IMG/VR virus record: IMGVR_UViG_3300008108_000037
Location: 68,002 to 132,001 of that record
Direction: 5' to 3' (one strand)
Source of the DNA: a virus
Lineage: Duplodnaviria > Heunggongvirae > Uroviricota > Caudoviricetes
DNA: 64,000 nt
The notes beneath the pieces are model-generated. The model had not been told where the DNA came from and searched no databases. It saw only the letters and a program-made list of their open reading frames with translations. Numbering within the stretch: the stretch's first letter is position 1; the number at the start of each line of letters is the position of its first letter. Position numbers and translations under genes: made by a program. This document shows positions 37,192 to 61,150 of this stretch, one piece after another.

Positions 37192-37206
37192 AAAAATTAA
37201 TTTAAT

Positions 37207-37839
37207 ATGCAAGACAGAAAAGAATTCCCGTCGTTATTGAAATCGATGGGATTGACCAACAAGGGAGTTGAGGTTGGATCTTTTAAGGGTGACTTTGCTA
37301 AAGAAATTCTTGAGCAGTGGCCAGGAATATTATATTTAGTGGATCCTTGGCGAGAAATGAAGGAAGAGGAGTATGACGATATTTCAAACATGAAACACCA
37401 GGGAAAAGTTTATGAAAAAACTTTTGAAAACCTAACAGGATTTGAAGAGCGAGCATTAATGATGAGAATGACATCAGATCAGGCTGCTGAATTATTTCCC
37501 GACAGGTCTTTGGATTTTGTTTATATTGACGCAAACCACACTTATGAGCATGTGAAAAATGATATCATGCTTTGGTATCCCAAAGTTAAAATAGGAGGAA
37601 TTCTTGCAGGACATGATTTTTTAAAACTAGAATGCTTCAACAAAGAATCTTACGCTAATGGACAAAAGAACCACCCGATTTGGATGTGGTTAGATGGGGA
37701 TTACAATAATAGATTCTATGCTGGAATGTTTGGAGTGAATCCAGCAGTGGAAGAATTTTTGGAATATAATGGTTACGATCTTCATGTCACTAATGAGTTC
37801 ACAGGAACTTGGTGGATAGTCAAAAAAAGCAATCTATGA
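37207..37839 (+). CDS. class I SAM-dependent methyltransferase (Methyltransf_24/TylF-like)
   Basis: GVEVGSFKGDFA and LDFVYIDANHTYEHVKNDIMLW...GGILAGHDF; same family as 31703-32431. Confidence 0.5.
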   Translation: MQDRKEFPSLLKSMGLTNKGVEVGSFKGDFAKEILEQWPGILYLVDPWREMKEEEYDDISNMKHQGKVYEKTFENLTGFEERALMMRMTSDQAAELFPDRSLDFVYIDANHTYEHVKNDIMLWYPKVKIGGILAGHDFLKLECFNKESYANGQKNHPIWMWLDGDYNNRFYAGMFGVNPAVEEFLEYNGYDLHVTNEFTGTWWIVKKSNL

Positions 37840-38777
37840 AAACCGCCTTTCTAAATCTCAGAAATCACAGGAAGGCTTATCTTATTTGTTCAGTTGGTCA
37901 AAGGTATATTGATATGGTTGAAGAACTGGTCCGCCAGTTAGACAAATATTCATCATTTCCTGTTTTTTTATACTATTCGGATGGCCAGGTTAATTTTGAT
38001 TTTCCCAATCTAATAAAACAGAAGTTTGAAATTGATTCCTCGATAAAGTATGAAATCGAAGGAATAAATCCAGAGAGTGTTAAAACACTAATGCTTACCA
38101 CAGTTAAACCCAGGGCTTGCAAGCTTTTATTGGAAAACTATGAGGTAGATGAATTTGTCTTTCTTGATTCCGATGTTTTGGTTACACCTGCTATAGATTC
38201 TGTTTTTCTAAACTATGGCGATTCTATTTCTAACTTTCCTATTTTTCTAAGATATTCATGGGACTGGGTAACCACCAACGGAAAGCAGCATGTTGCAGAT
38301 ATTATCTTAGAGAGAATTGGAATTTCTAGGGCTCCAACAGTAACCTCACTTTGTACCTGTCTTTTTATTGCAAACAGAAATTGTAAATCTTTCTTATCTG
38401 ATTGGGAAAAATATTGTTCAGATCCTGAAATAATTAAGTTTGCTTTAAGTCCGGAGGGATACGGAGGATTTACCGATGAATCTGTTGCTAACGCAGTCGC
38501 TTGGCTTTATAGATGTAATATTTCCATTCCAACTAATCTTTGTTGGGCTTGGAAATATGAACCAGTGAAATATGTCTTTGATTTTTATGACGGGATAATT
38601 TCAGATCTAGAAAGACACACTTCACAGCCGACCCATTATAAATTGAGTGGAGAAAATGAAGTACCTTTTGGTCTTTCTGTTATTCCCGAAAGAAAAAATA
38701 ATTTTTTAGGATTTCATTTCATCAAAGATCTAGAGACAATTAAAAAAGTTGCAGAAGAAATAGAAAAAAGGTTCTAA
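37809..38777 (+). CDS. hypothetical protein, possible GT-A glycosyltransferase
   Basis: FVFLDSDVLV DxD-like block; weak. Confidence 0.25.
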   Translation: MVDSQKKQSMKTAFLNLRNHRKAYLICSVGQRYIDMVEELVRQLDKYSSFPVFLYYSDGQVNFDFPNLIKQKFEIDSSIKYEIEGINPESVKTLMLTTVKPRACKLLLENYEVDEFVFLDSDVLVTPAIDSVFLNYGDSISNFPIFLRYSWDWVTTNGKQHVADIILERIGISRAPTVTSLCTCLFIANRNCKSFLSDWEKYCSDPEIIKFALSPEGYGGFTDESVANAVAWLYRCNISIPTNLCWAWKYEPVKYVFDFYDGIISDLERHTSQPTHYKLSGENEVPFGLSVIPERKNNFLGFHFIKDLETIKKVAEEIEKRF

Positions 38778-38854
38778 TTTCTGAAAATTTTTCTTTTTAT
38801 CTTCTATAATCTAAAACAAAAGGAATATATAAAAATTCCTAGATCTTTAAACAT

Positions 38855-38929
38855 TGCGGGGTAGAGCAGTGGTAGCTCGCTGGGCTCATAACCCAGAAGT
38901 CGTGGGTTCGAATCCCACCCCCGCTACCA
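38855..38929 (+). tRNA. tRNA-fMet (CAT), initiator-type, CCA encoded
   Basis: Near-colinear with E. coli tRNA-fMet: TGCGGGG TA GAGCAGTGGTAGCTC GCTGGG CTCATAA CCCAG...GTGGGTTCGAATCCCAC CCCCGCT ACCA; three G-C pairs closing the anticodon stem and a mismatched 1:72 pair (U:U). Confidence 0.75.
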
Positions 38930-39083
38930 AAAAGAAGTTGGTAGCAAACTTGTGTATGATACGTTCCGGCTTCGATTGATAATCGAAGGTATCAAAAAGG
39001 AAGACGTCTCCGAGGTCTAATTCCCGCAAGTCCCTGCTACCTTTTTTATTGTAACCATTTCGTTATTCAATCGTATAATATGC

Positions 39084-39857
39084 ATGAGCAAAAATTTGGT
39101 AATTTATTTAAATGTCTTTGATGACATATCAAAGACAGCACAAAGTGTAGAATCGATTAGAAGAGCATGTCATCGATGGGGTGCTAATTTTTACGAGGTG
39201 ACAAACGTTCAGTATCCAAATGCACCTTATCCCTTTCTCTGGGAAACCCTTGCAGCTTTTGAAGAGTTCAATCACTATGATAAAATTTTAAATTTGGATC
39301 ATGATATCATCATAAATTCTAATGCTCCAAACATATTTGAGGAATTAACAGATGAATATGATTTTTGTGCTGTTAGAGACGGGAATCCGGGAGGAAGATT
39401 TCCTCATAATGATGGATTTCTAAGAGATTCTATTATAAAAACAATTAGTCACGATCAAAATTGCTTTGATCTTTTTCATAGTGTTTTAAAGAATTTTAAT
39501 TATGAAAAATACTGGCAAAATTATTTTAATTTAGGTGTCTATCTATTTAACCCCAAAAAATACAATCGATTGATTAAAGAAATCAAGCAATTGGCTTTTG
39601 ATGACAAAAGAGTTTATCAAATGCTTATGGGACAGGGATTTCCTTGGCACGCATTACAGAATTTTTTTAATGCTTACATATCTTCCTCCGATCTTAAAAT
39701 TAAATTAATTGACAATACTTGGAATTGGATTATGCCAGATATATCCGAGGAATATCACGATGATTTTTATCTGGGAAAAATGAAACCAAACATCTATCAT
39801 TTCTGTGGAACCCCAACATCAAAGGAGGACCTTCCTTTTTATGACAGATGGAAATAA
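39084..39857 (+). CDS. hypothetical protein, possible nucleotide-sugar transferase
   Basis: ILNLDHDIIIN DxD-like block; weak. Confidence 0.25.
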   Translation: MSKNLVIYLNVFDDISKTAQSVESIRRACHRWGANFYEVTNVQYPNAPYPFLWETLAAFEEFNHYDKILNLDHDIIINSNAPNIFEELTDEYDFCAVRDGNPGGRFPHNDGFLRDSIIKTISHDQNCFDLFHSVLKNFNYEKYWQNYFNLGVYLFNPKKYNRLIKEIKQLAFDDKRVYQMLMGQGFPWHALQNFFNAYISSSDLKIKLIDNTWNWIMPDISEEYHDDFYLGKMKPNIYHFCGTPTSKEDLPFYDRWK

Positions 39858-39872
39858 TTAAAATGAATCGAT

Positions 39873-40520
39873 ATGGCAAATGGAGTATACAAAATTACAG
39901 AAGAATTTGAAAAATCACTCGAAAGCTATACAGGAGCTCCACATGTTGTAACTTTAGACAATCAGAGTAACGGACTTTTTCTTTCCCTATATTATGAAAA
40001 TTACGTTAAAAAGAGCATAGAAAAAGGAAGTATAAAAATTCCAAGTCGAACTTATCCTTCAGTTCCTTGCGAGATTATTCATGCTGGCCTTAAAGTAGAG
40101 TTTGAGCATGTGAAAGGTAAGACGATTAAAGGTGCATACCAACTAAAAGGGAGCAAGGTTTGGGATTCTGCATTGTGTTTTACCTATAATATGTATAAGA
40201 AAAATACCCATATGTGCGTTTCTTTTACTGGACCATTTAAGCATTTTAAGTTGTCTAAAGGTGGAGCAATATTAACAGATGATCATGAAGCATATCTTTG
40301 GTTTAAAAGAGCTAGATATAGTGGCAGAAGAGAATGTTCTTATCATGACGATCACTTTGATATGCTGGGATGGAATTTTTATATGATGCCAGAATTAGCA
40401 GCAAGGGGTTTACTCATGATGGGACAATTTTATGATCCTACAACGGGAAAACCTAAAAACAATCCAGATCTGGAACTACCATATCCAGATTTATCAAAAT
40501 TTGATATTTATAAAAAATGA
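39873..40520 (+). CDS. hypothetical protein
   Basis: 215-aa ORF; no motif recognised. Confidence 0.3.
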   Translation: MANGVYKITEEFEKSLESYTGAPHVVTLDNQSNGLFLSLYYENYVKKSIEKGSIKIPSRTYPSVPCEIIHAGLKVEFEHVKGKTIKGAYQLKGSKVWDSALCFTYNMYKKNTHMCVSFTGPFKHFKLSKGGAILTDDHEAYLWFKRARYSGRRECSYHDDHFDMLGWNFYMMPELAARGLLMMGQFYDPTTGKPKNNPDLELPYPDLSKFDIYKK

Positions 40521-42700
40521 GTAAAAAATTATCTATAATAATTCCCTCACTAAACAGGGAAAAATTACTTATAAGTTCTATCAATAGCATAGTAGAAATT
40601 TTTAATTCATTCAACTTTCAAGATTATGATGTACATGCTATAGTAAATGGGTCAAACAAAAATACAACAGAAAAAATTAGAGAGAATATTTTTTTACATC
40701 ATCATGAAAAAAAATTGAATCCTGGAATAGCGAGAAATATAGGAATTGAAAAAAGCGACTCTGAGTGGATTTGGTTTATTGACGACGACGATGAAATAGT
40801 AGGTGAAAACATATCAAAAGTAATAGATTTTTTATACGACAAAAATGGTAATCATGGATTCGATTTAATAGCTCATTCTTTAAAAAATAAATACATTCCG
40901 GAAGATAATAAGAGATCTCTATTGGAAAATGTTTGTTTTTTTAAAGAAAAACAGGAGGCATTCAATTACATTTTCAAAAGAGATTTAATAAAAAAGCATA
41001 ATATATTATTTTCCGACGGATTACACGAGGATATCAGATACGTAACAGAACTGATAATAAATTCCTCCATCATTAAAATATTTGATTTTTTCCTGTATAA
41101 AAAAATTAACCGGGATGATTCGATAACTAAAAATCTCAATCCATCTAGAATAGATGGATATTTACTAGCAATCAGCGAGATTCAATCACTAGATAGCGAT
41201 GAAATTTCTTCGATGTCTAATGGAATAGTGACACAGTGTCTAGGAACTATCCTATATCTAATAAACAAATCCCAAAATAAGTTGGAGCTACTAGAATATC
41301 TGGACAGCAAATTCACATTTTATCTAAGATCAAAAATAACCGAAACGTATAGTGAAAAAGATACTAATTTCAAATACGCTGTTTCTCTTTACATTAATAA
41401 GAAAGACAATCTAGTATTTCTTGAAAGATTAAACGAATGCTTTTCTAGCTATCTCTCTTGTAGAGATCTAAAAAACTCAATATTTCTTGGTCCGAAAGAA
41501 ATAATAGGATGCTGTAAAAGATTCTTTTATAATGGTAAGATGAAGGGTGACATCGTTTTAATGTCGGAATCAATAGATGTTAATTTAGATTCTATACTTA
41601 AAAGAAAGGCTGAGGTTGAAGATGGGATAAATTCACAGACATATGAACCTTGTGAGGGGTGCCCTTATATAGAAAGATATAGTAGATTAGAAAATAAAAA
41701 AATAAACTACATAAGCTTAGAAAATTTCACTTATTGCAACATGCGTTGTACTTATTGTTCTCCTAAATATTATGGGGGTAAAGAAGCAGTATACAACACT
41801 CATGATATAATTAGTCAATTAATAGATGGTGAATATCTTGACGATAAAGTACACGTTGTTTGGGGAGGGGGAGAGCCAACATTACAAAGGGAATTTGGGG
41901 AAATAACAGAGAAACTAATAAACATAGAAAATGTCTATAAGATAAGAGTTCTTACAAACAGTCTAAGATTTTCAAACGATCTTTATAACCTAGCATCGAA
42001 TGATAAAATAAGGATAGTTACTAGTATAGATGCAGGAACTCAAGATGTATTTAAAAATATCAGGGGAAAAGGAGAAATTTTAACAGTTTTAGAGAACCTA
42101 AAAAAATATACAGAGCAAACCAAGGATCCAGAGAATCTAACTTTAAAATACATTCTAACTGAACAAAACTATCATTCCAATCAGTTAGAACAATTTGTAA
42201 AAACTATAAAAGAATTTGGATTTGAAAACAATTTTGTCCAAATAAGTTGTAATTTTTTATATGATCATCTGGGTGATGAGATAATATTTTCAATATACGA
42301 ATTAGCAGCTAGACTATTAAATAATGGATTTAAGTTTGTTTATTTTGATGATTTAATCCGTGACAGATTAGCTATAAGTGAGGATATTGCGGATAAAGTA
42401 ATCAATTATTTGTCGGAAAAATACCTCTATCACGATGATATAATTTCTTATAAGAGTAATAAACGGGTAGTTCTTTGGGGAGATGGATACCAATCTAGAT
42501 GGATAAAAAACAGCACAACCTTTGGAAAATCTAATAAAATAAGGGGAATCGTTTCCGATATAAATGGATTTAACAATTTGAATTTAAATGTGGGTTTTAC
42601 AGTATCCCCTGCCGCAATCCAACAATTACCAGACATATTTAAGGAAATTAAGAAGGAAAAAGATGTCTATAATAAATTGAAATTCCACATATTTCTATAA
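40517..42700 (+). CDS. GT2-family glycosyltransferase fused to C-terminal radical SAM domain
   Basis: N-terminal LSIIIPSLNRE and WIWFIDDDDEI (GT2 core, DxD); C-terminal NFTYCNMRCTYCSP (CX3CX2C) and HVVWGGGEPTLQ (GGEP); 727 aa, 4-nt overlap with upstream gene. Confidence 0.6.
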   Translation: MSKKLSIIIPSLNREKLLISSINSIVEIFNSFNFQDYDVHAIVNGSNKNTTEKIRENIFLHHHEKKLNPGIARNIGIEKSDSEWIWFIDDDDEIVGENISKVIDFLYDKNGNHGFDLIAHSLKNKYIPEDNKRSLLENVCFFKEKQEAFNYIFKRDLIKKHNILFSDGLHEDIRYVTELIINSSIIKIFDFFLYKKINRDDSITKNLNPSRIDGYLLAISEIQSLDSDEISSMSNGIVTQCLGTILYLINKSQNKLELLEYLDSKFTFYLRSKITETYSEKDTNFKYAVSLYINKKDNLVFLERLNECFSSYLSCRDLKNSIFLGPKEIIGCCKRFFYNGKMKGDIVLMSESIDVNLDSILKRKAEVEDGINSQTYEPCEGCPYIERYSRLENKKINYISLENFTYCNMRCTYCSPKYYGGKEAVYNTHDIISQLIDGEYLDDKVHVVWGGGEPTLQREFGEITEKLINIENVYKIRVLTNSLRFSNDLYNLASNDKIRIVTSIDAGTQDVFKNIRGKGEILTVLENLKKYTEQTKDPENLTLKYILTEQNYHSNQLEQFVKTIKEFGFENNFVQISCNFLYDHLGDEIIFSIYELAARLLNNGFKFVYFDDLIRDRLAISEDIADKVINYLSEKYLYHDDIISYKSNKRVVLWGDGYQSRWIKNSTTFGKSNKIRGIVSDINGFNNLNLNVGFTVSPAAIQQLPDIFKEIKKEKDVYNKLKFHIFL

Positions 42701-42726
42701 TAGAATATTTTTAAAGAGAATTATAA

Positions 42727-43827
42727 ATGAAAAATAAAAAATTAAAAGTTTCTGTCATAGGAGGGGGTATAAATTCTGCAGTGGGATACGCACACTATTC
42801 TGCTATTAAGCTTTCAAACAAGTTCGAGATAACCTGCGGAAATTTTAGCAGAAATTCAAAGACTAATAGGGAAAGCGCTGAAATATATGGAGTGAATAAA
42901 GTTTATAGCGACTATAGGACTATGCTGTTGGAAGAAAAAAATAATATAGATGCAGTTGTAATATTAACCCCTACGGATCAGCATTATGATCAGTTAGACC
43001 TTGCAATAAGCTTAGGAATCCCTATTGTTTGTGAGAAATGCTTGATCGCTAATAATTTGGAATTAGAAAAACTGAAGGAGAAACAATCTAATAATTTCAT
43101 AGCAGTTGTTTTCAATTATCTCTGTTATCCTATGTTGAAGGAATTAAAAAGCATAATTGATTCGGGTGGAATTGGAAAAATTTTACAGATTCAAATCGAG
43201 ATGCCGCAAGAAGGATTTCTTAGGCACATGAACGGATTACCACTTAAACCACAAAAATGGAGATTAGTGGATGGAAGAGTTCCCACCCTTTCTCTTGATC
43301 TAGCAACGCACACATATTCTATAGTAAGATTTTTAACATCACAAAATCCTTTAGAGGTTATTGCAGTCGAAAGTAGTTTTGGAAATTTTCCTGGAATAGT
43401 TGATGATATAAATTGCATAATTAAATACACGAATGATATAATTTGTAATATGTGGTATAGTAAAACCGCATTAGGGAATAGAAATGGATTAAGGGTTAGA
43501 ATATTTGGGTCTGATGGAAGTGCAGAATGGTACCAATTAGAACCAGAAGTAATTCACATGTCAGATAAAAGTGGAAAGATATCTTTGCTAGATAGGGGAT
43601 CTGAAGGATTATTAACAGCTAATGAATTCAAATATAATAGATTCAAAGTTGGGCATCCTGTAGGATTTATTGAATCCCTCGCTAATTTTTATGAGGACGT
43701 CTATGATGATTTTAAAAAAAGTCATGATGATCGCGTTACATATGGTCTAGAGCAATCAGAGGAGTGTATTAAACTGCTAGAGGCAATATCTAAGTCATCC
43801 GAAGAAAAATCTTGGCAATCCTTATGA
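42727..43827 (+). CDS. Gfo/Idh/MocA-family NAD(P)-dependent sugar oxidoreductase
   Basis: KVSVIGGGINSAVGYAH...IDAVVILTPTDQHYDQ...IPIVCEKCLI matches the family N-terminal Rossmann and EKP block. Confidence 0.55.
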   Translation: MKNKKLKVSVIGGGINSAVGYAHYSAIKLSNKFEITCGNFSRNSKTNRESAEIYGVNKVYSDYRTMLLEEKNNIDAVVILTPTDQHYDQLDLAISLGIPIVCEKCLIANNLELEKLKEKQSNNFIAVVFNYLCYPMLKELKSIIDSGGIGKILQIQIEMPQEGFLRHMNGLPLKPQKWRLVDGRVPTLSLDLATHTYSIVRFLTSQNPLEVIAVESSFGNFPGIVDDINCIIKYTNDIICNMWYSKTALGNRNGLRVRIFGSDGSAEWYQLEPEVIHMSDKSGKISLLDRGSEGLLTANEFKYNRFKVGHPVGFIESLANFYEDVYDDFKKSHDDRVTYGLEQSEECIKLLEAISKSSEEKSWQSL

Positions 43828-44987
43828 AAAAAATTTTACTGCTCGATACTAACGTTTCATCGTTTCCTATTTATAATTTTTTGGTTAACGAGGGATATGA
43901 AGTTTATGTTGCTGGATCAAAAGAAAATGATTGTCTGGCAAAATGCTCTACTAATTATATTTTTTTAGACTATTCCAGAATAGAAGAATTAAACAAAATA
44001 ATTGAAGATTATAAATTTGATTATATTGTTCCAGGGTGTAACGACATGTCTTATGCTTGTGTTACTAAAATAAATAAATCTAGAAAATTTCCTGGATTAG
44101 ATCCGACTGAAATTTGCGAAACTATTAATAATAAATCGATGTTTAGGGATTTTGCAATTTCGAATGGATTAAATGTTCCCAAGGTTTATTCTTTAAAAGA
44201 TGCTTATTGTGTTAATGTTCCACTAATAATAAAACCAGTTGATGCTTATAGCGGGAGAGGGATTTCTATAGTAAACGAACCAAACAAGATGTTACTAGAT
44301 TTGGCTGTTGAAAATGCTATAAAATTTTCAAAAGACAAAAAATATGTAATAGAAGAATACAAAACAGGTCAGCTATACAGTCATTCTGCATTTATAGAAA
44401 ACAAAAAGATAGTAAAAGATTTTATAGTTGTAGAAAATTGTACTGCCAATCCTTTTACTGTGGATTCTAGTTATGTTGTACATGATGACTTTCCTGTTAA
44501 TTTGCTAGAATCAATAAGGAAAGATATAGAGATAATAGCAAAAATTTTAAAATTAGAGGATGGTCTTATTCATACGCAATTTATAAGGTCTGGAGATTCT
44601 TTTTATATAATAGAGGTTACCAGAAGATGTCCGGGGGATTTGTATAGCTTGCTGATTGAAAAATCTACAAATTTTAAATATTCACAAAATTATGTTAGAC
44701 CTTTTATTGGGAAAAAAATAATACAATCCACATCAGAAGAAATTAAAAAATACATTTTTAGACACACTATATCTAGCGATGCAGACCTTTTTTCGATTGG
44801 AATTGAATTTAAAAACGAATTGGATATAGATTTATACATTTCTCTTTCTGTTACTGGGGATGAAATGAAAAAATCACCATTCAGTAGATTTGGTCTGGTC
44901 TTCATTAAATGTAACGATCAGAAGGATCTTGAGAATAAATACGGCCTAGCTTTGAGGAGAGAACTATATTATTATAAGAGTATATAG
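43812..44987 (+). CDS. ATP-grasp domain ligase
   Basis: PLIIKPVDAYSGRGISIV and YVIEEYKTGQLYSHSAF resemble ATP-grasp B-loop/core blocks. Confidence 0.5.
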   Translation: MAILMKKILLLDTNVSSFPIYNFLVNEGYEVYVAGSKENDCLAKCSTNYIFLDYSRIEELNKIIEDYKFDYIVPGCNDMSYACVTKINKSRKFPGLDPTEICETINNKSMFRDFAISNGLNVPKVYSLKDAYCVNVPLIIKPVDAYSGRGISIVNEPNKMLLDLAVENAIKFSKDKKYVIEEYKTGQLYSHSAFIENKKIVKDFIVVENCTANPFTVDSSYVVHDDFPVNLLESIRKDIEIIAKILKLEDGLIHTQFIRSGDSFYIIEVTRRCPGDLYSLLIEKSTNFKYSQNYVRPFIGKKIIQSTSEEIKKYIFRHTISSDADLFSIGIEFKNELDIDLYISLSVTGDEMKKSPFSRFGLVFIKCNDQKDLENKYGLALRRELYYYKSI

Positions 44988-45003
44988 AGATATTTTTATA
45001 GAA

Positions 45004-45327
45004 ATGATTACAGTAACTGAAAAAGCAGCACAAAGAATTAAATACCTAATAGAAGAAGCAGAAGATTCTAAGTTTTATCTAAGAGTATCTGTTAAAGGGG
45101 GAGGATGTAGCGGACTTTCATATGATTTATCATTTGATGACGAGATGAACGAAAAAGACACTCTTTATGAAGATAAAGCAGTTAAAATATTAGTGGATAA
45201 TAAATCCATTCTTTATCTGTTTGGAACTGAACTAGACTTCTCTGACGGACTTAACGGTAAGGGATTTCAGTTCGTAAATCCTAATGCCTCCCGCACATGT
45301 GGATGTGGAGAAAGCTTTGCTGTGTAG
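45004..45327 (+). CDS. IscA/HesB/ErpA A-type Fe-S cluster carrier
   Basis: VKGGGCSGLSY...GFQFVNPNASRTCGCGESF: the three conserved Cys (C-x...C-G-C-G) of A-type carriers; 107 aa. Confidence 0.7.
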   Translation: MITVTEKAAQRIKYLIEEAEDSKFYLRVSVKGGGCSGLSYDLSFDDEMNEKDTLYEDKAVKILVDNKSILYLFGTELDFSDGLNGKGFQFVNPNASRTCGCGESFAV

Positions 45328-45343
45328 CTTGATATATAGCTAC

Positions 45344-46036
45344 ATGATAAAGGGGTTTTCTGAATACATTAACGAAGCTTATAGCAATCCTAAAAATTAT
45401 ACGGATTTAAAATACGGAAATCCACAAAAGTGGCAAAAAGAAGCCATGGACAGAGGATCTAACCTTTTAAAATCTGTCAAAGAATCAAATCTTTGGGAAA
45501 AATGGACTTCTAGTTTACCTCCCAATCAAGATTCAGAGGAGGTAAAATCCGATTTACAAAATTTAATTCTCATGGGAAATTCTTTAACCGAGGAGGAAAA
45601 AGAGTTTGTAAAGGATTCAGAAAATGATATGCTAGGAATCTTTGAGAAATTTTTAAAGTTAAATGGGGTTGATTCTATTAAGAAAGAAGATTTGGAATCG
45701 GTAACAGATGAATTGGATCCGATCACTTTTATTTTAAAATATCAGTTTAACTATCCTAGACCACTTCAACTGGCTCTTGTCCACGACATACCCCTTTATC
45801 CAGAGCAGCCAACTAACGCTTGCAGTCCCGCTTATCCTTCCGGACACTCAATAGATGCTTTTGTGATTGCTGGATTGATTGCTAAAAAATACCCTCAACT
45901 TGCCGATGATGTTTCTAAGCTTTCTGAAAGAGTTTCTATGACTAGAAACCTGGGAGGAATACATTTCACGTTTGATTCATCCTTTGGTAAAGAAATAGCA
46001 GAAGATATACTTTCTTTGGATCTTTTATCCCTTTAG
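45344..46036 (+). CDS. PAP2-superfamily phosphatase (start taken at internal Met)
   Basis: YPRP (KxxxxxxRP), YPSGHS (PSGH), SMTRNLGGIHFTFD (SRxxxxxHxxxD) tripartite PAP2 signature; ORF-track start 45284 would overlap IscA gene. Confidence 0.5.
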   Translation: MIKGFSEYINEAYSNPKNYTDLKYGNPQKWQKEAMDRGSNLLKSVKESNLWEKWTSSLPPNQDSEEVKSDLQNLILMGNSLTEEEKEFVKDSENDMLGIFEKFLKLNGVDSIKKEDLESVTDELDPITFILKYQFNYPRPLQLALVHDIPLYPEQPTNACSPAYPSGHSIDAFVIAGLIAKKYPQLADDVSKLSERVSMTRNLGGIHFTFDSSFGKEIAEDILSLDLLSL

Positions 46037-46153: not shown

Positions 46154-49100
46154 ATGGCAAATTATAGAATTTTAGGACAAGAAACTGTTAACAATTCGGT
46201 AAGTCCGGGACCTACCCTTGTAACACTTTATACGGTTCCTCAAAATGCTTCCATTCTAATCAATGCAATAACCGGATATAATGAGGGATTTAATAGTGGA
46301 TATCTTACCGTTGCAGTAAAAAGGAACGGGGACGAGGACTATTCTCCAGATCAAATTGTTATAAATACTCCCTTAGCACCCGGTGCTTCAATACAAATTT
46401 CTCCTCAATTTTCTCCTGTTGGTTTAACTGCCGGCGACGTAATACTTTTAGTTGGTAATTATTCTCCTGCCCCTACAACAGTAGCGGTAACCTTATTCGG
46501 TGAAGACGGGGCTTCTAGCGGTGGATCCGGCAATGCAGGAACATCCGGAACTTCAGGAAACAGTGGGGGCTCAAGTACTTCAGGAAGTAATGGTACTAGC
46601 GGGACTTCGGGAACTAATGGATCTACAGGAACTGGTGGTACTAGTGGTACCTCTGGAATGAACGGATCTATCGGAACTAATGGTACGAGTGGAACCTCAG
46701 GTGAAACCTTCGGAACTAGTGGAACGTCAGGGGCAGCTGGTGCTCCTGGAGCAGCGGGATCTTCTGGAACATCTGGGGTTTCCGGAGCATCTGGTTCTTC
46801 TGGAACCTCTGGGGTTTCCGGAGCATCCGGTTCTTCCGGAACATCGGGAAATTCAGGTTCTTCTGGAACATCTGGGATTTCCGGGGCATCTGGTTCTTCC
46901 GGAACATCAGGAAATTCGGGATCCTCTGGTACATCAGGAAATTCGGGAACCTCTGGTACTTCGGGAGAATCTGGTTCTGCTGGTACATCCGGATCATCTG
47001 GAACATCAGGAAACTCCGGGTCATCCGGTACATCAGGAAACTCCGGGTCCTCCGGTACATCAGGAAATTCGGGAACCTCTGGTACTTCTGGGGAATCTGG
47101 CTCTTCTGGAACATCAGGATTCTCTGGGTCCTCCGGAACATCAGGAAACTCCGGGTCATCCGGTACATCAGGATCCTCTGGAGAACCCGGTTCTGCCGGA
47201 ACATCGGGATCCTCAGGTACATCTGGTACATCAGGAAACTCCGGGTCATCCGGTACATCAGGGTCATCCGGTACATCAGGGTCCTCTGGTACATCTGGTG
47301 CTGATGGTACATCCGGTTCTTCCGGAACCTCGGGAAACCCTGGATCATCAGGGACCTCTGGAACATCAGGAAACTCTGGATCATCGGGGACCTCCGGATC
47401 CGCTGGAACTTCTGGTTTAAGCGGAATATCTGCAGGACAGATTTATTATTTTAACCAATCTCAGTCTTCTGACATTTCTCCATATAAAGTCCTTAGTGTT
47501 TACCCATCAGGAGCTGCTGAACAAACAGTTCCTATGGTATTAACGGGCGGGCAATTGAATGTTCTGGTAAGTCAATTCCTGACCCCCGAATTGGGATTTG
47601 CTGTAATTCCACCAGGCACTCAGAGATTTCATCTGCATTTTTTAAAACAACAGTTTAATGATGACATAGATGGCTATGTTACCATAGAACTTGCAAATTC
47701 GTCAGGTGTAGGATATGGCACTATTATTCAATCAAACAAAGCTTTAATTGGATGGGTGAGTGTTTCTCAATCTTATGAGCTGTTGGTTGATATTGTTTTA
47801 CCTTCAGTATACATAAACACCACAGACAGAATGATTGTCAAGGTTTACGTTGACAATAATGAAGCAACCGTCAGAAATTTAACTTGGTACACAGAGGGGG
47901 CTCAAAACTATTCATATGTAATCACATCGGTTGGAGCAATTGTAGCAAGCTCTGGAACGTCAGGGAGTTCTGGAACTAGTGGATCAAGCGGAACTTCGGG
48001 ATCCGGGGGTTCATCAGGAACTAGCGGATCTAGTGGATCGGAGGGAACTTCAGGTAGCTCTGGTACTTCCGGCAGTTCTGGAACCTCTGGAGAAGATGGA
48101 ACTTCAGGTAGCTCTGGTACTTCCGGCAGTTCTGGAACCTCTGGAGAAGATGGAACTTCGGGATCTGGGGGTTCATCAGGAACTAGCGGATCTAGTGGAT
48201 CGGAGGGAACTTCAGGTAGCTCTGGTACTTCGGGAACCTCTGGAGAAGATGGAACTTCAGGTAGCTCTGGTACTTCGGGAACCTCTGGAGAAGATGGAAC
48301 TAGTGGATCTTCAGGTACATCAGGAACCTCGGGGGTGTGCGAGTGTCCACACAGCTACACTATCACGGCTCCAACGGATATCACGTGTTACTCTTTAACA
48401 AATGACGGAGATCCCGACAACGTAAATAGTACAAACTATCTCGATTGTAACGGGAATCCTGCGGTCATTTACAATAAAATTTTTCTCACACCAGCTACTT
48501 ATTTCTGTGCTCAGACCGGATCTGTTACAACTGATTCGGGGCTCACTGTAATATCAGTACCTGATGATCCTGGATCTTGCGACGGATGTTGCGATGGATA
48601 TGCTTATTCTTATACCGACGAAACAGATACTATCATAAGTGGAATCATATATGACGGAGAATCTCTAACTTTCTGTGCGATCCCAGGATCTGTAGTTTGG
48701 TCCCATACAATAGTAGACAATGGGCATTGTGTAGGAAGTTCAGGTACTTCCGGCAGTTCTGGTTCGAATGGTACGTCAGGTAGCTCTGGTACTTCCGGCA
48801 GTTCTGGTTCGAATGGTACGTCAGGTAGCTCTGGTACTTCCGGCAGTTCTGGATCTTCTGGGACATCAGGAACTGATGGTTCCTCCGGTAGTACAGGTAC
48901 TTCTGGTTCTTCCGGCAGTTCTGGATCTTCTGGGACATCAGGAACTGATGGTTCCTCCGGTAGTACAGGTACTTCTGGATCCTCAGGGTCATCTGGAACT
49001 TCCGGAACTGATGGATCTTCAGGTACATCAGGTAACTCTGGTTCTTCTGGAACCTCAGGATCAGCAGGTACATCAGGAAATGAGGGTCCCCCTGGATCTT

Positions 49101-50857
49101 CGGGAACGTCAGGAATTGATGGAACCAACGGATCGACAGGTTCTTCTGGAACCTCAGGAAACTCTGGTTCTTCAGGTACTTCAGGTACTTCAGGTAGTTC
49201 TGGTTCAACTGGTACTTCAGGTACTTCAGGTAGTTCTGGTTCAACTGGTACTTCAGGTAGTTCTGGTTCTTCTGGAACCTCTGGTTCTTCTGGTTCAACT
49301 GGTACTTCAGGTACTTCCGGTAGTTCTGGTTCAACTGGTACTTCAGGTAGTTCTGGTTCTTCTGGAACCTCAGGAAACTCTGGATCTTCTGGAACCTCTG
49401 GAGCATCAGGATCTTCTGGAACCTCAGGAAACTCTGGTTCTTCTGGAACCTCTGGAGCATCAGGTAGTTCTGGTTCTTCTGGAACCTCTGGAGCATCAGG
49501 ATCTTCTGGAACCTCAGGAAACTCTGGATCTTCTGGAACCTCAGGAAACTCTGGATCTTCTGGAACCTCTGGAGCATCAGGATCTTCTGGAACCTCAGGA
49601 AACTCTGGATCTTCTGGAACCTCTGGAGCATCAGGATCTTCTGGAACCTCTGGAGCATCGGGAGCTAATGGATCTTCTGGAACCTCTGGAGCATCAGGAT
49701 CTTCTGGAACCTCTGGAGCATCAGGAGCTAATGGATCTTCTGGAACCTCTGGAGCATCAGGAGCTAATGGATCTTCTGGAACCTCAGGAAACTCTGGTTC
49801 TTCTGGAACCTCTGGAGCATCAGGAGCTAATGGATCTTCTGGAACCTCAGGATCTTCTGGAACCCGAGGTTCCTCAGGAACTTCAGGAGCTTCCGGTGGA
49901 AACGGAACATCCGGAACTTCAGGAGCTTCCGGGGGAAGCGGAACATCCGGAACTTCGGGAGCTTCTAGTTCAGCAATATCTAGTAATAACATCGACAACT
50001 ATGTTGTTACCATGACTGGAAACAATTCCACGCCTTTCCAAGGGGAGCCTAACTTAACATTCGATAATACGAGACTTTTTGTAACTGGGAAAGTAAGGGT
50101 TTATCAAAATCCATTAAGCATAAGTTCAGGAAGTCTTTCTTGGCCTTTAAGATCTGGAGCAAATGCAACAGTTACTTTAAATCAAAATGTAACTACGTTT
50201 ACACTTAGCGAATTTGAAGCTGGAGATACTGGGGTATTAATAGTAAAACAAGATGCTACTGGAGGTAGAACAATGGTACTTCCCTCTAGTTCACAAGTAG
50301 TTGGAGGAGGATCTTATACCCCAACATCCGCTGCAAACTCACAAGACGTTCTTGGAGTTTACTACGACGGAACAACATATTTCTGGACCATTGGGCTCGC
50401 TAGTGTTACAGGTAACTTACTTACAATAAACAATAATGCAGATCACAGAATATTGACTGCAACTGGTAGTGCTACTTCGATAGACGGAGAAACAGGATTG
50501 ACTTATAACAGCAGTACATTAGCAGTAACTGGAGCAATCACAGCAACAGGAGATATCACTGCTTATTCATCTTCGGATGAAAGATTAAAGGATAATATTT
50601 CGGTTATTCAGGATGCTTTGGAAAAGGTCTCTAGCATAAGAGGAGTGGAATTTGATTGGAACGACAAGGCTCATGAAGTTAATAGAGGTCACGATCTTGG
50701 AGTAATTGCTCAAGAGCTGATTAAAGTTCTTCCTGATGCAGTTAAAGAAAGAGAAGATGGATATTATGGGGTAAGATATGACAGAATTATACCTCTTCTC
50801 ATAGAGGCTATAAAAGACTTAAGAAAAGAAATAGAAGAACTTAAAAGAGAAAAATAA
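46154..50857 (+). CDS. collagen-like tail fibre protein with C-terminal S74 intramolecular chaperone (endosialidase-chaperone) autoprocessing domain
   Basis: Hundreds of Gly-X-Y triplets dominated by GTSGSSGTSGNSG, in three blocks separated by globular inserts (one Cys-rich: VCECPHSY...CDGCCDGY); C-terminus SSSDERLKDNISVIQDALEKVSSIRGVEFDWND...HDLGVIAQELIKVLPDAV...YYGVRYDRIIPLLIEAIKDLRKEIEELKREK matches the phage tail-fibre IMC/peptidase S74 domain. Confidence 0.75.
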   Translation: MANYRILGQETVNNSVSPGPTLVTLYTVPQNASILINAITGYNEGFNSGYLTVAVKRNGDEDYSPDQIVINTPLAPGASIQISPQFSPVGLTAGDVILLVGNYSPAPTTVAVTLFGEDGASSGGSGNAGTSGTSGNSGGSSTSGSNGTSGTSGTNGSTGTGGTSGTSGMNGSIGTNGTSGTSGETFGTSGTSGAAGAPGAAGSSGTSGVSGASGSSGTSGVSGASGSSGTSGNSGSSGTSGISGASGSSGTSGNSGSSGTSGNSGTSGTSGESGSAGTSGSSGTSGNSGSSGTSGNSGSSGTSGNSGTSGTSGESGSSGTSGFSGSSGTSGNSGSSGTSGSSGEPGSAGTSGSSGTSGTSGNSGSSGTSGSSGTSGSSGTSGADGTSGSSGTSGNPGSSGTSGTSGNSGSSGTSGSAGTSGLSGISAGQIYYFNQSQSSDISPYKVLSVYPSGAAEQTVPMVLTGGQLNVLVSQFLTPELGFAVIPPGTQRFHLHFLKQQFNDDIDGYVTIELANSSGVGYGTIIQSNKALIGWVSVSQSYELLVDIVLPSVYINTTDRMIVKVYVDNNEATVRNLTWYTEGAQNYSYVITSVGAIVASSGTSGSSGTSGSSGTSGSGGSSGTSGSSGSEGTSGSSGTSGSSGTSGEDGTSGSSGTSGSSGTSGEDGTSGSGGSSGTSGSSGSEGTSGSSGTSGTSGEDGTSGSSGTSGTSGEDGTSGSSGTSGTSGVCECPHSYTITAPTDITCYSLTNDGDPDNVNSTNYLDCNGNPAVIYNKIFLTPATYFCAQTGSVTTDSGLTVISVPDDPGSCDGCCDGYAYSYTDETDTIISGIIYDGESLTFCAIPGSVVWSHTIVDNGHCVGSSGTSGSSGSNGTSGSSGTSGSSGSNGTSGSSGTSGSSGSSGTSGTDGSSGSTGTSGSSGSSGSSGTSGTDGSSGSTGTSGSSGSSGTSGTDGSSGTSGNSGSSGTSGSAGTSGNEGPPGSSGTSGIDGTNGSTGSSGTSGNSGSSGTSGTSGSSGSTGTSGTSGSSGSTGTSGSSGSSGTSGSSGSTGTSGTSGSSGSTGTSGSSGSSGTSGNSGSSGTSGASGSSGTSGNSGSSGTSGASGSSGSSGTSGASGSSGTSGNSGSSGTSGNSGSSGTSGASGSSGTSGNSGSSGTSGASGSSGTSGASGANGSSGTSGASGSSGTSGASGANGSSGTSGASGANGSSGTSGNSGSSGTSGASGANGSSGTSGSSGTRGSSGTSGASGGNGTSGTSGASGGSGTSGTSGASSSAISSNNIDNYVVTMTGNNSTPFQGEPNLTFDNTRLFVTGKVRVYQNPLSISSGSLSWPLRSGANATVTLNQNVTTFTLSEFEAGDTGVLIVKQDATGGRTMVLPSSSQVVGGGSYTPTSAANSQDVLGVYYDGTTYFWTIGLASVTGNLLTINNNADHRILTATGSATSIDGETGLTYNSSTLAVTGAITATGDITAYSSSDERLKDNISVIQDALEKVSSIRGVEFDWNDKAHEVNRGHDLGVIAQELIKVLPDAVKEREDGYYGVRYDRIIPLLIEAIKDLRKEIEELKREK

Positions 50858-51210
50858 TGACACATTTAGAGCCAGTAATAGTTCAAAATGAAATACCTCC
50901 ATACTTTGATATTTACTTTGAAAACACCCTTCCAGAAGGTGAGGATGAATTTTCTTTTTCTTTTGGACCCCAACCGGGATACGATACTTGGGAGATAGAA
51001 TTCGCTGAAGGATCAACTGATTGGGAGGTTAAACCTGATGGCTGGGTACAGATTGAAATAGGATGGGGTCAAGAAACATATTTAACCCCTTTCCATCATT
51101 TGAACCAAATAATACATTTAGAATTTAATAGAATCCATGTGATGAAACCCGGAACTCTAAAAACATTAAAATTAAGAGGTAGAAGAATAGCATTGAAAGA
51201 TAAATCATGA
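50857..51210 (+). CDS. hypothetical protein (possible fibre-associated)
   Basis: 117-aa ORF, 1-nt stop/start overlap with tail fibre gene. Confidence 0.3.
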   Translation: MTHLEPVIVQNEIPPYFDIYFENTLPEGEDEFSFSFGPQPGYDTWEIEFAEGSTDWEVKPDGWVQIEIGWGQETYLTPFHHLNQIIHLEFNRIHVMKPGTLKTLKLRGRRIALKDKS

Positions 51211-51911
51211 GCCAGAGATATTACATGACCAGCTTAGGAAGAAGGCCTACTGGACCATCTACTGCTATCATCGGTAGTGATGCCGATGTTCTGATGTTCA
51301 GATATGTTTGGCCAGGAACTTTGAATGGAGGTGATGCTGATACATTCACTGGCATTGAACCAGGAACTGGTACATCCTATGATGGTATAAAAAATGCTAG
51401 CGGGGCACCAACCCGTTATGTTGGATATGCTCCAGGGGGAGGAATGACATCTACTGTGGGCTCGACGACAGGCATAAATACCTCAACAACACTCATTTAT
51501 TGGGCTGGTGATAATACCTCAACTGCTGGACAGGAAGTTGTTTTAGTTAGACCCAAATCAATAGCTGCATTAGACACCTCTATAACAAGATGGAAAATCG
51601 GAATATATCTCAATTGGTATGATACAGTAGGGGTTGGGTGTATGGACTTTATAATCAGGTGCTACAGTGGTTCAACTTTCTCGGATACCGGTACAGACAT
51701 CAGTGCATCAGGGGGAACGCTTTTAAGAACTTACCTGTTTAATGCTAATACAAACAACCAAAATAATCCCTCTGGGACTGGATACCCATCGAATGGTATC
51801 AATGGATATGCTCAAATCGGTATTTTTGAATTTTTTTCCAGTGGAGATGGGTTTTTTAGATATAATCTAACCTCTATCGGGAGCTGCAGTACTGAGAATG
51901 ATATGGCTTAA
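51207..51911 (+). CDS. Gly/Thr/Ser-rich hypothetical protein (possible receptor-binding/fibre component)
   Basis: 234-aa ORF with locally higher GC and G/T/S-rich composition; 4-nt overlap with upstream ORF. Confidence 0.3.
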   Translation: MSQRYYMTSLGRRPTGPSTAIIGSDADVLMFRYVWPGTLNGGDADTFTGIEPGTGTSYDGIKNASGAPTRYVGYAPGGGMTSTVGSTTGINTSTTLIYWAGDNTSTAGQEVVLVRPKSIAALDTSITRWKIGIYLNWYDTVGVGCMDFIIRCYSGSTFSDTGTDISASGGTLLRTYLFNANTNNQNNPSGTGYPSNGINGYAQIGIFEFFSSGDGFFRYNLTSIGSCSTENDMA

Positions 51912-52165: not shown

Positions 52166-52252
52166 GGAGGCTTGGCAGAGCGGTCGAATGCGGCAGTCTT
52201 GAAAACTGCTTTACGGGTAACTGTAACCGGGGTTCGAATCCCTGAGCCTCCG
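52166..52252 (+). tRNA. tRNA-Ser (TGA), type II
   Basis: Acceptor GGAGGCT/AGCCTCC, anticodon loop CTTGAAA, long variable arm, T-loop GGTTCGAATCC. Confidence 0.8.
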
Positions 52253-52257
52253 CAATT

Positions 52258-52320
52258 GCCTCCTTAGCTCAGCTGGTAGAGCGACGCACTTGTAATGCGT
52301 AGGTCATTGGTTCGATCCCG
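52258..52320 (+). tRNA. tRNA-Thr (TGT)
   Basis: GCCTCCT TA GCTCAGCTGGTAGAGC G ACGCA CTTGTAA TGCGT ... AGGAGGC. Confidence 0.8.
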
Positions 52321-52401
52321 ATAGGAGGCTCGATACTAACGTAAAACTTGTACACTAACATAATCCTTGTTAGCGTACAAAAAGTTCGTTAGCAGTCAAA
52401 T

Positions 52402-52488
52402 AGAGAGGTGTCCGAGAGGCTGATGGAGCACGCTTGGAAAGCGTGTTTACGAGCGATCGTAACAAGGGTTCGAATCCCTTTCTCTCTG
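52402..52488 (+). tRNA. tRNA-Ser (GGA), type II
   Basis: Anticodon arm CACGC TTGGAAA GCGTG, long variable arm, T-loop GGTTCGAATCC. Confidence 0.7.
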
Positions 52489-52494
52489 CACATG

Positions 52495-54003: not shown

Positions 54004-54942
54004 TTGTTATGTATGAAAACTATTTGGGTTTTAGAGGACATAAAAAAAGATGGAGAATTTTTCCTTCATGAGGTTGAGCTCGTTTGTCTGATTGCATCAG
54101 TTTCGAATTGGAAGGTGTTATATCCGGAATGTGAAACTGTAATTTATGTGTGTCCCTCAGTTTACAATTATCTAGAAAAAATTGGAATTTTAAATTTATG
54201 GGACAGTGTAGAAACTAATCCTTTATCAAAAAGTGATAATATTAATAGAAGAGCTTTCTGGACTGCTTCCAAGCTGAAGTGTATGAAAAACATAGAAGCT
54301 CCTTTCATAATGATGGATTGTGATTTATATTTCAAAAGAAAAACATTTGAAATCAAGGACTTATCCAAATACGATATAATAGTTAATCAGATCGAAGAAG
54401 GAGTAAAGGTTTATCCCAGCATCAAAGACAAAATACTAAATCAGATAGTAAATGAATATCCGATTAAATTCGGATGGAAAAACACACATTCAACCAACGT
54501 TTCATTCCTTTATATAAATAATGAAGATTTTAGAATGGAATATGCTAACATCTCATTGGAATGGATGGAAATCCTTTCGCAAAGATTTTGGGACGATCCT
54601 GATTTGAACGGAAAATATATGGTTTTTTGTGAACAGAAGATTTTAAAAGAGCTTGGGGATTTAAGAGTTCAAAAGATAGCAGCTCTTTCTCCACAATTCT
54701 TTTTCGGAGAAGAAAATACAATTCTGAATATCCCTGATGAATATGGAACTTTTTCAATGAATGACAGTCTAGATTATTCTCATCTCCATGCGAATAAAAG
54801 ATTTGTTCTCAAGGACAGGAGTCTTTTTTTAGATATAAGAAGCGATATTATAGAATCCATGGTAAATCTAAATAGTTTTACTATGAAACTTTTGCATCAG
54901 ATATTACTTAAAAATAAAGAAATAATTGGCCCAGTGGCGTAA
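54004..54942 (+). CDS. hypothetical protein
   Basis: 312-aa ORF; its stop codon (54940-54942) lies inside the D-loop of the following tRNA-Leu. Confidence 0.35.
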   Translation: MLCMKTIWVLEDIKKDGEFFLHEVELVCLIASVSNWKVLYPECETVIYVCPSVYNYLEKIGILNLWDSVETNPLSKSDNINRRAFWTASKLKCMKNIEAPFIMMDCDLYFKRKTFEIKDLSKYDIIVNQIEEGVKVYPSIKDKILNQIVNEYPIKFGWKNTHSTNVSFLYINNEDFRMEYANISLEWMEILSQRFWDDPDLNGKYMVFCEQKILKELGDLRVQKIAALSPQFFFGEENTILNIPDEYGTFSMNDSLDYSHLHANKRFVLKDRSLFLDIRSDIIESMVNLNSFTMKLLHQILLKNKEIIGPVA

Positions 54943-55009
54943 TTGGTAGCCGCACTAGACTTAGGATCTAGTGTCGAAAGACGTGGGGGTTCGAGTCCCT
55001 CCTGGGTCA
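54928..55009 (+). tRNA. tRNA-Leu (TAG), type II
   Basis: Acceptor GGCCCAG/CTGGGTC, anticodon arm CTAGA CTTAGGA TCTAG, variable arm TGTCGAAAGACGT, T-loop GGTTCGAGTCC. Confidence 0.75.
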
Positions 55010-55017
55010 CACAGAAA

Positions 55018-61077: not shown

Positions 61078-61150
<73 letters not shown>

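Follow-up and report, generated by a model that had tools for sequence, protein, structure and literature searches.

We analysed a 64,000-nucleotide stretch of viral DNA (IMG/VR record IMGVR_UViG_3300008108_000037, positions 68,002 to 132,001), hereafter called the window, and found that the open reading frame (ORF) at 46154..50857 on the plus strand encodes a collagen-like fibre protein of 1567 amino acids followed by a stop codon, exactly as the initial annotation had claimed. The product is very probably a modular homotrimer that forms a fibre of the virion, most likely on the tail, and the phage is a widespread AT-rich jumbo phage of fresh water. It matched Pfam Collagen in 11 stretches (E=3.8e-105, 344 bits, cut-off 27.2) and Pfam Peptidase_S74 at aa 1474-1531 of 1567 (E=7.2e-16, 58.7 bits, cut-off 22). 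Its PHROG matches were many tail-fibre families, including phrog_6320, phrog_8745 (aligned over aa 1137-1565) and phrog_5073. The identical protein is carried by JGI contig Ga0114351_1000298, which is the window itself. Collagen-like phage fibres that carry an S74 chaperone are already known, and the gene belongs among them. Tail fibres of this sort are a familiar kind of receptor-binding protein, and the gene as such is ordinary.

The protein is built as a chain of collagen blocks and non-collagen (NC) domains, all on the plus strand. The triplet parse bounds an N-terminal non-collagen domain (aa 1-122, 46154..46519), which is followed by collagen block 1 (aa 123-426, 46520..47431; Pfam and triplet parse), made of 100 triplets in three runs. 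The NC2 insert of 174 aa (aa 427-600, 47432..47953), characterised by homology, AlphaFold2 and Foldseek, separates block 1 from block 2 (aa 601-729, 47954..48340), which has 43 triplets and ends at C729-E-C731. Then come the Cys-rich NC3 insert of 131 aa (aa 730-860, 48341..48733), assigned from its Cys positions, and block 3 (aa 861-1271, 48734..49966) with 137 uninterrupted triplets. The C-terminal part is composed of a pre-chaperone region recognised by homology (aa 1272-1473, 49967..50572) and the Peptidase_S74 domain (aa 1474-1567, 50573..50854), recognised by Pfam and its catalytic motif. The initial annotation had described a Pro-poor, Ser/Thr-rich collagen-like shaft of three repeat blocks split by a beta-rich and a Cys-rich insert. 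The Pfam Collagen match, the triplet parse, the model of NC2 and the positions of the Cys residues all agree with that description.

Repeat blocks of the shaft

A direct parse gave 280 Gly-X-Y triplets over the three blocks. The breaks in block 1 are an in-register Gly-to-Ser triplet (STS, aa 141-143) and a one-residue insertion (F186). The X position is occupied by Thr in 114, Ser in 99, Ala in 24 and Asn in 21 of the 280 triplets, and the Y position by Ser in 230/280 (82%) and by Thr in only 9/280. X and Y are thus essentially limited to Ser, Thr, Ala and Asn, Ser and Thr together making up 81% of these positions. Pro is found at 5/560 X/Y positions (0.9%). Across all blocks there is no Lys and a single Arg (Lys/Arg 0.2%), and the count of KG[ED] is 0.

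Since Gly/Ser-rich sequence is the classic flexible linker, and since these tracts are without Pro, charge pairs and the usual Thr at Y, they might be taken for disordered linkers or for a different glycine-rich fold, for instance a polyglycine-II bundle, and not for triple helices. We consider this improbable. The longest run of Gly in period 3 is 137 triplets, whereas the maximum in 1000 composition-preserving shuffles was 9. The periodicity is kept despite synonymous diversity: 30 different 9-mers encode GTS and 26 encode GSS, and four Gly codons are used. The natural indels described below are all whole triplets, and the asymmetry between X and Y (Thr 114 at X versus 9 at Y) is common to distant relatives. 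Strict periodicity, whole-triplet indels and X/Y asymmetry therefore speak for a defined helix and against a disordered linker of Gly and Ser. The Pfam Collagen score and the presence of a trimerising S74 domain at the C-terminus also argue against the linker.

This type of repeat is not confined to the window. A DNA pattern for GTSGSSGTSGSS had matches in at least 120 IMG/VR contigs. Nearly all of the 120 best listed relatives are Pro-free with Ser-dominated Y positions, and X is Thr or Ser in most of them. In the library that we searched, we found no paper on Ser-rich collagen-like phage fibres. The G-[TS]-S fibre class is common in uncultivated phages and is without biochemical description. 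Its composition contradicts the stabilisation schemes of the collagen papers cited below, yet at least 120 viral contigs carry repeats of this type. Either the triple helix holds by a pure network of hydroxyl groups and water, or such fibres need modification.

Globular domains and proposed assembly of the fibre

The C-terminal intramolecular chaperone named in the initial annotation was found with its catalytic motif complete (S1474-D-E-R1477-L-K1479). In endosialidase-type S74 domains, the catalytic dyad consists of the Ser and of the Lys five positions further on, and the Arg stabilises the oxyanion; the active site is positioned only in the folded trimer (PMC3742443). S1474, R1477 and K1479 are all intact in the window protein. 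The domain aligns with the solved tail-fibre chains 8jov and 6f45, which the Protein Data Bank (PDB) labels 'Putative tail fiber protein' and 'Long tail fiber distal subunit'. Its identity to the C-terminal end of PSSM2_033, a tail fibre of P-SSM2, is 47%. Cyanophage tail-fibre C-termini match as well. A domain for trimerisation and registration, the trimer-dependent S74 domain, is thus present beside the collagen shaft. The pre-chaperone region showed 33% identity over 233 aa to one of the listed relatives (P0008), and a precomputed Pfam match to PF26209 (Phage_phiTE_241_C) exists on a truncated 281-aa product that covers this region. We presume it to be the distal receptor-binding tip.

The N-terminal domain (aa 1-122) gave no Pfam, PHROG or homologue match, and it is 100% conserved across three assemblies. 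From its position, it is presumably the end that attaches to the virion.

NC2 is the beta-rich insert. Among the 120 listed relatives, 28 match it along 150 aa or more (29-61% identity), always between collagen segments, and a search of deposited phage genomes gave no match. An AlphaFold2 model from a 19-sequence alignment is all-beta, with a predicted local distance difference test score (pLDDT) of 90.4 and a predicted template modelling score (pTM) of 0.85. Foldseek against the PDB found the C-terminal jelly-roll of cocaine esterase/PepX-type hydrolases (E ~7e-7 to 1e-6, template modelling (TM) score 0.62-0.66). Against BFVD, it found uncultured Caudovirales 'Collagen triple helix repeat' proteins (TM 0.90, 64% identity) and also many S74/intramolecular-chaperone fibre proteins (TM ~0.75). 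The prediction shows NC2 as a conserved jelly-roll with a galactose-binding-domain-like fold. By this model, NC2 probably serves as a lateral carbohydrate-binding knob.

All ten Cys residues of the fibre are located at aa 729-859. Nine are inside NC3 and the tenth, C729, ends block 2. NC3 is composed of a Cys-rich module of ~70 aa and a degenerate half-copy, and C859 sits two residues before block 3. A word-index search with NC3 found no match. An exhaustive phmmer search found 12 weak matches (best E=6e-9, ~80 aa covered), and NC3 keeps 5/6 conserved Cys of the module shared with them. In the matching proteins that we inspected, the module lies amid Pro/Thr-rich linkers, and one such protein also has a LamG domain. 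When the NC3-containing proteins were scanned, the NC3-type module matched no Pfam family. The module, CxCYxYTNDGDP...YLDC...YFCA..GSV...C.GC (~70 aa), recurs in uncharacterised proteins (P0121-P0131), in which several Cys-containing modules are joined by long Pro/Thr linkers. C729, C731 and C859 are outside the shared module, at the ends of the collagen helices. As judged from these positions, inter-chain disulfides of C729/C731 and C859 could staple the trimer at the helix ends.

These features may imply the following assembly. In keeping with the established mechanism of S74 domains, three chains would associate at the C-terminal S74 domain. The active site would form only in the correct trimer, and the chaperone of ~94 aa would then cleave itself off at S1474. 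The C-terminal trimer would register the chains, and the Gly-X-Y blocks would zip from C to N into triple helices; collagen is known to fold from a C-terminal nucleus by zipping towards the N-terminus (PMC11923368). At 0.286 nm per residue, the extended lengths are ~118 nm for block 3, ~37 nm for block 2 and ~87 nm for block 1, ~240 nm in total. NC2 and NC3 may act as globular nodes that interrupt the helices, the flanking Cys residues of NC3 being the possible staples. The orphan N-terminal domain would anchor the fibre to the virion, and the pre-S74 region would form its distal, receptor-binding tip. The number of triplets in block 3 varies by whole units, which would change the length of the fibre.

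Several results weigh against the reading of this protein as a triple-helical tail fibre. No tail, baseplate or capsid gene was found within the 64-kb window. The fibre gene lies amid sugar genes and tRNAs, not in a tail or baseplate module; its neighbours are sugar genes, two coupled ORFs and tRNAs, and no tail-fibre assembly chaperone adjoins it. The N-terminal, NC2, NC3 and pre-S74 domains, each searched alone, gave no PHROG match. The AlphaFold2 model of NC3 is all-beta with a pLDDT of only 69.9, and we dropped a fold assignment for NC3 since the model was of low confidence and Foldseek found no PDB match below E=0.1. The shaft itself is also at odds with described collagens. Viral collagens have 22% Pro and 35% Asp/Glu at X and 38% Arg/Lys at Y (PMC3368898), and bacterial collagens have 19-31% Pro at X and 32-48% Thr at Y (PMC8968730). 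KGD/KGE salt-bridge triplets have been proposed as a universal clamp and make up as much as 13% of viral triplets (PMC11923368). These stabilisers, that is, Pro, salt bridges and Thr at Y, are missing from the blocks, so a triple helix of the unmodified chain is not assured. The name 'tail fibre' in the initial annotation is therefore backed by homology to tail-fibre families and weakened by the lack of tail genes in the window; the tail role would follow from the homology of the collagen and S74 parts only. In relatives, tail assembly chaperones (Phage_tail_APC) are frequent among the genes nearest to collagen ORFs of the G-[TS]-S type, and giant ORFs of structural appearance precede the fibre in the loci L006 and L008. 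On balance, we retain the reading as a virion fibre, most likely of the tail, as very probable.

Integrity of the gene and its phage

Three independent assemblies (JGI 3300008117, ENA ERZ27247995 and JGI 3300031857) contain the gene with an intact frame. The N-terminal domain, block 1, NC2, block 2, NC3 and the C-terminal parts are 100% identical among them. The versions differ in block 3, by a five-triplet indel, a one-triplet indel and three substitutions, and the indels are all whole Gly-X-Y units. The protein is accordingly 1552 aa long in one version (L132), 1570 aa in another (L138) and 1567 aa in the window, and block 3 has 132, 137 or 138 triplets depending on the assembly. The gene is real, and only the triplet count of its block 3 is uncertain or polymorphic.

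Repeats of this kind raise the question of whether the region is an assembly artefact, that is, a collapsed, expanded or chimeric repeat. Most assemblies do break inside the gene at block 3: the contigs of six of the eight loci listed (L133-L137 and L139) end inside it, 0.9-1.7 kb upstream of the stop codon, in or just past block 3 (~49.1-50.0 kb of the window). Exact DNA repeats reach 80 nt, and block 3 differs by one to five triplets. However, the three assemblies, which come from different samples, are identical outside block 3 and keep the frame, no 100-mer recurs, and the DNA repeats are degenerate, with Tandem Repeats Finder matches mostly of 60-88%. The G+C content is 0.45-0.49 in the gene and 0.30-0.36 around it, and at third codon positions (GC3) the repeats have 0.22, as against 0.29 for the remaining genes. 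The high G+C content is due to the Gly, Ser and Thr codons, and the native GC3 indicates that the gene is native. We consider an artefact scarcely credible. Of the two outcomes that would have refuted the initial annotation, an artefactual repeat region and a C-terminus unlike S74, neither was observed. The native GC3 also ruled out the G+C anomaly as a sign of horizontal transfer. The gene is, however, a systematic assembly breakpoint, and the repeat count of block 3 in short-read data is not to be trusted.

As the initial annotation had warned, the repeat DNA generates long artefactual ORFs in other frames and on the opposite strand. These are 46680-47420 and 48768-50015 on the plus strand and 46716-47384, 48610-49998 and 48645-49658 on the minus strand. 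Gene callers choose the spurious ORFs only where the contig truncates the true gene.

Two translationally coupled ORFs of 117 aa and 234 aa (50857..51911, plus strand) are always beside the fibre; they overlap the fibre stop codon and each other (TAATG and ATGA overlaps). Neither had a Pfam match, and the 234-aa ORF had one weak PHROG match, to a family of unknown function. The exact 117-aa and 234-aa proteins are found on 26 and 15 contigs, respectively (NCBI, JGI, ENA and Logan), the longest being 219,355 bp. The number of contigs and this length indicate that the phage is widespread and jumbo (at least 219 kb). We rejected the idea of a conserved small ORF after S74 fibres, as no homology links the 117-aa and 234-aa ORFs to the similar-sized ORFs of L006 and L008.

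CHAP and glucosaminidase lysins, 21 tRNAs and a transfer-messenger RNA (tmRNA) in the window indicate a bacterial host. The tmRNA is located at 36809-37193, with an ARAGORN tag ending in ...ADYAIAA and a full-length match to Rfam RF00023 (79.5 bits). A search of a phage collection for close relatives gave only tRNA and S74 matches, and a promoter and terminator scan gave counts equal to the shuffled expectation.

The first three tRNAs past the fibre operon (52166-52489) are Ser(TGA), Thr(TGT) and Ser(GGA), which read the X/Y repeat codons; TCN makes up 88% of the Ser codons of the repeats, and Thr is encoded by ACN. The post-hoc chance of the order Ser-Thr-Ser after the fibre is ~0.004. Gly tRNAs (TCC and GCC) are found at 60938-61151. 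Among the genes of the window, the fibre alone contributes ~26% of the Gly and Ser codons. ARAGORN called a tRNA-Leu(TAG) at 54928-55010 that overlaps the last part of the DUF6734 ORF (54004-54942) and also a TTG-start ORF (54943-55635). The JGI call of the latter begins after the tRNA (~55018), so the mechanical ORF is probably over-extended. Elsewhere in the window, a 624-aa protein (8613-10487, minus strand) has a C-terminal Hint/intein-like domain, with AXH, Intein_splicing, PT-HINT and Vint matches at aa 462-620.

Sugar genes and comparison with known systems

The fibre gene lies within a sugar island of ~50 kb, and at least six glycosyltransferases (GTs) are encoded in the window. Directly upstream (37207..46036, plus strand), Pfam identified a methyltransferase, a family 8 GT (GT8) at 39084, a DegT-like protein, a fusion of a family 2 GT (GT2) with a radical S-adenosylmethionine (SAM) domain, and GFO/IDH/MocA, ATP-grasp, IscA-like and PAP2 proteins. 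The upstream side of the island also holds an NTP-transferase/kinase, two paralogues of GT7+LamG type, a GT2-like gene and five or more radical SAM proteins, and its methyltransferases number two in all. DUF6734, Gly_transf_sug (at 54943) and UDP-galactopyranose mutase genes lie downstream. The last of these, glf (61186-62274), is ~50% identical to the glf annotated in Streptococcus suis phages and implies galactofuranose synthesis by the phage. In the run of radical SAM genes at 19510-26501 (minus strand), two proteins have an N-terminal SPASM domain, and DUF6071 and LamG proteins are interleaved; the further GT2-radical SAM fusion is at 40517-42700. The tandem paralogues at 27809-30654 (minus strand) each combine N and C domains of the GT7 type (beta-1,4-galactosyltransferase-like) with a ConA-like LamG lectin. 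This is an animal-like GT family, unusual for a phage. There are also two prolyl-hydroxylase-like oxygenases of the 2OG-Fe(II)_Oxy_3 type, at 1860-2363 and 5343-6008 (minus strand).

The four genes next to the fibre that encode the DegT-like, GT2-radical SAM, GFO and ATP-grasp proteins (39873-44987) recur at 55-80% identity in three AT-rich IMG/VR contigs (L003, L004 and L005). No collagen ORF was found in the fetched flanks of these contigs (5.6-10 kb on each side), and in L004 the cassette sits in an island of GT1 and haloacid dehalogenase-type nucleotidyltransferase genes. We therefore rejected a fibre-specific linkage of the cassette, which appears to be a portable sugar-modification module.

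For complete collagen ORFs of the G-[TS]-S type on 42 IMG/VR viral contigs, we surveyed the 149 nearest neighbours by Pfam; the counts stand without a matched background set. The commonest families were Glycos_transf_1 and Glyco_trans_1_4 (8 each), followed by Phage_tail_APC (6; the third commonest family row, and the second commonest kind after group-1 GTs), 2OG-FeII_Oxy_3 (4), Glyco_transf_9 (4) and Glyco_trans_1_2 (3). The 2OG-FeII_Oxy_3 family is thus the fourth commonest neighbour of these Ser/Thr collagen ORFs, though they are near-Pro-free. In four loci of other lineages (L006, L007, L008 and L010), non-homologous GTs, usually with a methyltransferase, were found a few kb from G-[TS]-S fibres. 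In five loci, a GT of 690-890 aa directly adjoins the Ser/Thr collagen ORF with a gap of 19-102 nt (L011:3352-5736, L042:3854-5932, L054:10443-12758, L058:5851-8532 and L115:6400-8532). These large multi-domain GT-B enzymes share 30-54% identity among themselves and with the GTs close to the L006 and L008 fibres, and those scanned individually combine GT1 with GT25 or GT9 matches. Their low mutual identity suggests that the pairing of fibre and GT is old. On the other hand, GT-B type enzymes were absent from the flanks fetched (up to ~7 kb) at 43 of 52 loci, and the L002/L009 lineage had none within 10 kb. The density of GTs showed no sharp decay with gene rank from the fibre within the ~7-kb flank.

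What the sugar genes act on can be read in two ways. One is that, while the fibre is in the host cytoplasm, its Ser and Thr residues are densely O-glycosylated by enzymes from the sugar island that the phage encodes on either side of it, and that the glycans stabilise a weak triple helix, form a mucin-like coat, or both. There are sugar genes on both sides of the fibre, non-homologous GTs recur near fibres of this class, group-1 GTs are the commonest family among its neighbours and include large adjoining enzymes, and the chain is without the stabilisers listed in the cited collagen papers. There are also precedents: galactosyl-Thr renders (Gly-Pro-Thr)10 triple-helical (PMC11923368), BclA is a glycosylated collagen-like protein (PMC8968730), and mycobacteriophage virions are glycosylated according to work cited in PMC12619734. 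However, the adjacent cassette is found without a collagen ORF in three contigs, once in another sugar island, most loci have no GT-B enzyme nearby and no sharp rank decay is seen, the GT counts have no matched background, and Y carries its hydroxyl group on Ser, where BclA and the glycosylated (Gly-Pro-Thr) peptide have Thr. Glycosylation of the fibre is plausible from its sequence and surroundings but unproven, and we regard it as possible, though rather unlikely.

The other way is that the fibre is unmodified and the GT, sugar and radical SAM genes act on the host envelope (O-antigen or capsule, as in superinfection exclusion) or on other targets, their proximity to the fibre arising only from a shared hypervariable island. 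Such an arrangement has been published. T4-like pelagimyophages and cyanomyophages have a hypervariable cluster of 34-45 kb that contains tail fibres, GTs (GT8 being the commonest), lipopolysaccharide (LPS)-sugar genes and radical-SAM cassettes, and its authors attribute the cluster to modification of the host O-chain (PMC7029224). The window likewise holds a GT8, sugar-nucleotide genes and at least five radical SAM proteins, the cassette moves independently of the fibre, and GT density has no sharp peak at the fibre. This explanation leaves the predominance of GTs over other families beside G-[TS]-S fibres in unrelated contigs, the immediate adjacency of the large GTs and the stability of the helix unexplained, and VrlC and gp14, between which the published cluster lies, were not recognised in the window. 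We rate action on the host surface above glycosylation of the fibre, and give it slightly less than an even chance. Thus, the proposal of the initial annotation that an upstream cluster O-glycosylates the fibre stands as far as a GT and sugar island is present and GTs recur near such fibres. It is weakened by a cassette that is not fibre-specific, by the 43 loci without a nearby GT-B gene and by the published reading of host-surface modification.

Sulfation, which the initial annotation had also suggested, was not borne out. No sulfotransferase or 3'-phosphoadenosine-5'-phosphosulfate (PAPS) gene was found in the ~55 ORFs that were scanned with Pfam, among which the ORF 2360-2851 was not included. 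A regular expression for the PAPS 5'-PSB-loop hit this one ORF (minus strand, 163 aa, 43 kb away; motif LPRTGST, start MRILIISLPRTGSTSLL), which had no match in the PDB or the phage database. This motif was the sole lead, and sulfation of the fibre is unsupported.

A bolder form of the glycosylation reading is that G-[Thr/Ser]-Ser collagens are a distinct and widespread class of phage fibres whose triple helix, devoid of Pro, of salt bridges and of Thr at Y, folds only via dense O-glycosylation by cytoplasmic GTs of the phage. The product would be a 'glyco-collagen' fibre of ~240 nm with a mucin-like surface, its node staples being inter-chain cystine knots (C729/C731 and C859). We consider this doubtful. 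If true, it would be a first for a bacterial virus, both as a collagen that depends on glycosylation and as a glycosylated tail fibre of such a kind. From the recurrence of diverse GTs near the fibres comes a hypothesis that can be tested, namely that virion fibres of aquatic phages are glycosylated. If it is true, the reading of host range, of fibre length and of the 'auxiliary' sugar genes of phages would change.

The S74 domain of the window fibre shares with those of phage endosialidase tailspikes and tail fibres the C-terminal place, the Ser and Lys at i and i+5, and the Arg. It differs from endosialidase-type S74 proteins in that it caps a collagen-like shaft, whereas theirs caps a triple beta-helix. 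P-SSM2, the cultured reference, keeps its collagen fibre (PSSM2_028) and its S74 fibre (PSSM2_033), which has no collagen repeats, as separate proteins.

EPclA-D of an E. coli O157 prophage (PMC3368898) and PSSM2_028 (orf028) of P-SSM2 (PMC1079782) have the same architecture of a Gly-X-Y shaft flanked by globular domains for trimerisation or binding. Their role as side or tail fibres and their form of a dumbbell or beaded rod are also those predicted for the window fibre. EPcl has 48% Pro at X and 31% Arg/Lys at Y (PMC3368898). PSSM2_028 has 89 triplets with Pro at 43% of X/Y positions, in contrast to the 280 triplets and 0.9% of the window fibre. The window fibre also differs from both in its two internal globular inserts and in its S74 cap in place of PfC.

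Streptococcal serine-rich repeat adhesins have hydroxyl-rich repeats and dedicated sugar and GT genes nearby, and for repeat proteins of the BclA or serine-rich adhesin type, glycosylation is proposed or shown to stabilise or coat the fibre. Sugar and GT genes also lie near the window fibre, but its adjacent cassette is not fibre-specific. BclA and, according to work cited in PMC11923368, vent-worm collagen have hydroxyl-rich repeats without hydroxyproline, as in the window fibre. In these collagens, as described, glycosylation falls on a Thr at Y, and X is usually Pro, whereas the window fibre has Ser at Y and Thr or Ser at X.

The host recognition cluster of PMC7029224 has the same mix of tail fibres, GT8 and other GTs, LPS-sugar genes and radical-SAM cassettes as the island of the window. 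Its published freshwater members are without LPS and radical-SAM genes, unlike this island. Metagenomic collagen-repeat proteins of uncultured Caudovirales (such as UniProt A0A6J5SWS4) and the listed relatives P0001-P0120 bear a close likeness to the fibre itself. The N-terminal domain and the Cys-rich NC3 of the window fibre occur in none of the 120 relatives listed, all of which are uncharacterised. These proteins nevertheless share the same Pro-free G-[TS]-S repeats, the same NC2 jelly-roll (up to 64% identity, TM 0.90) and often the same S74 end.

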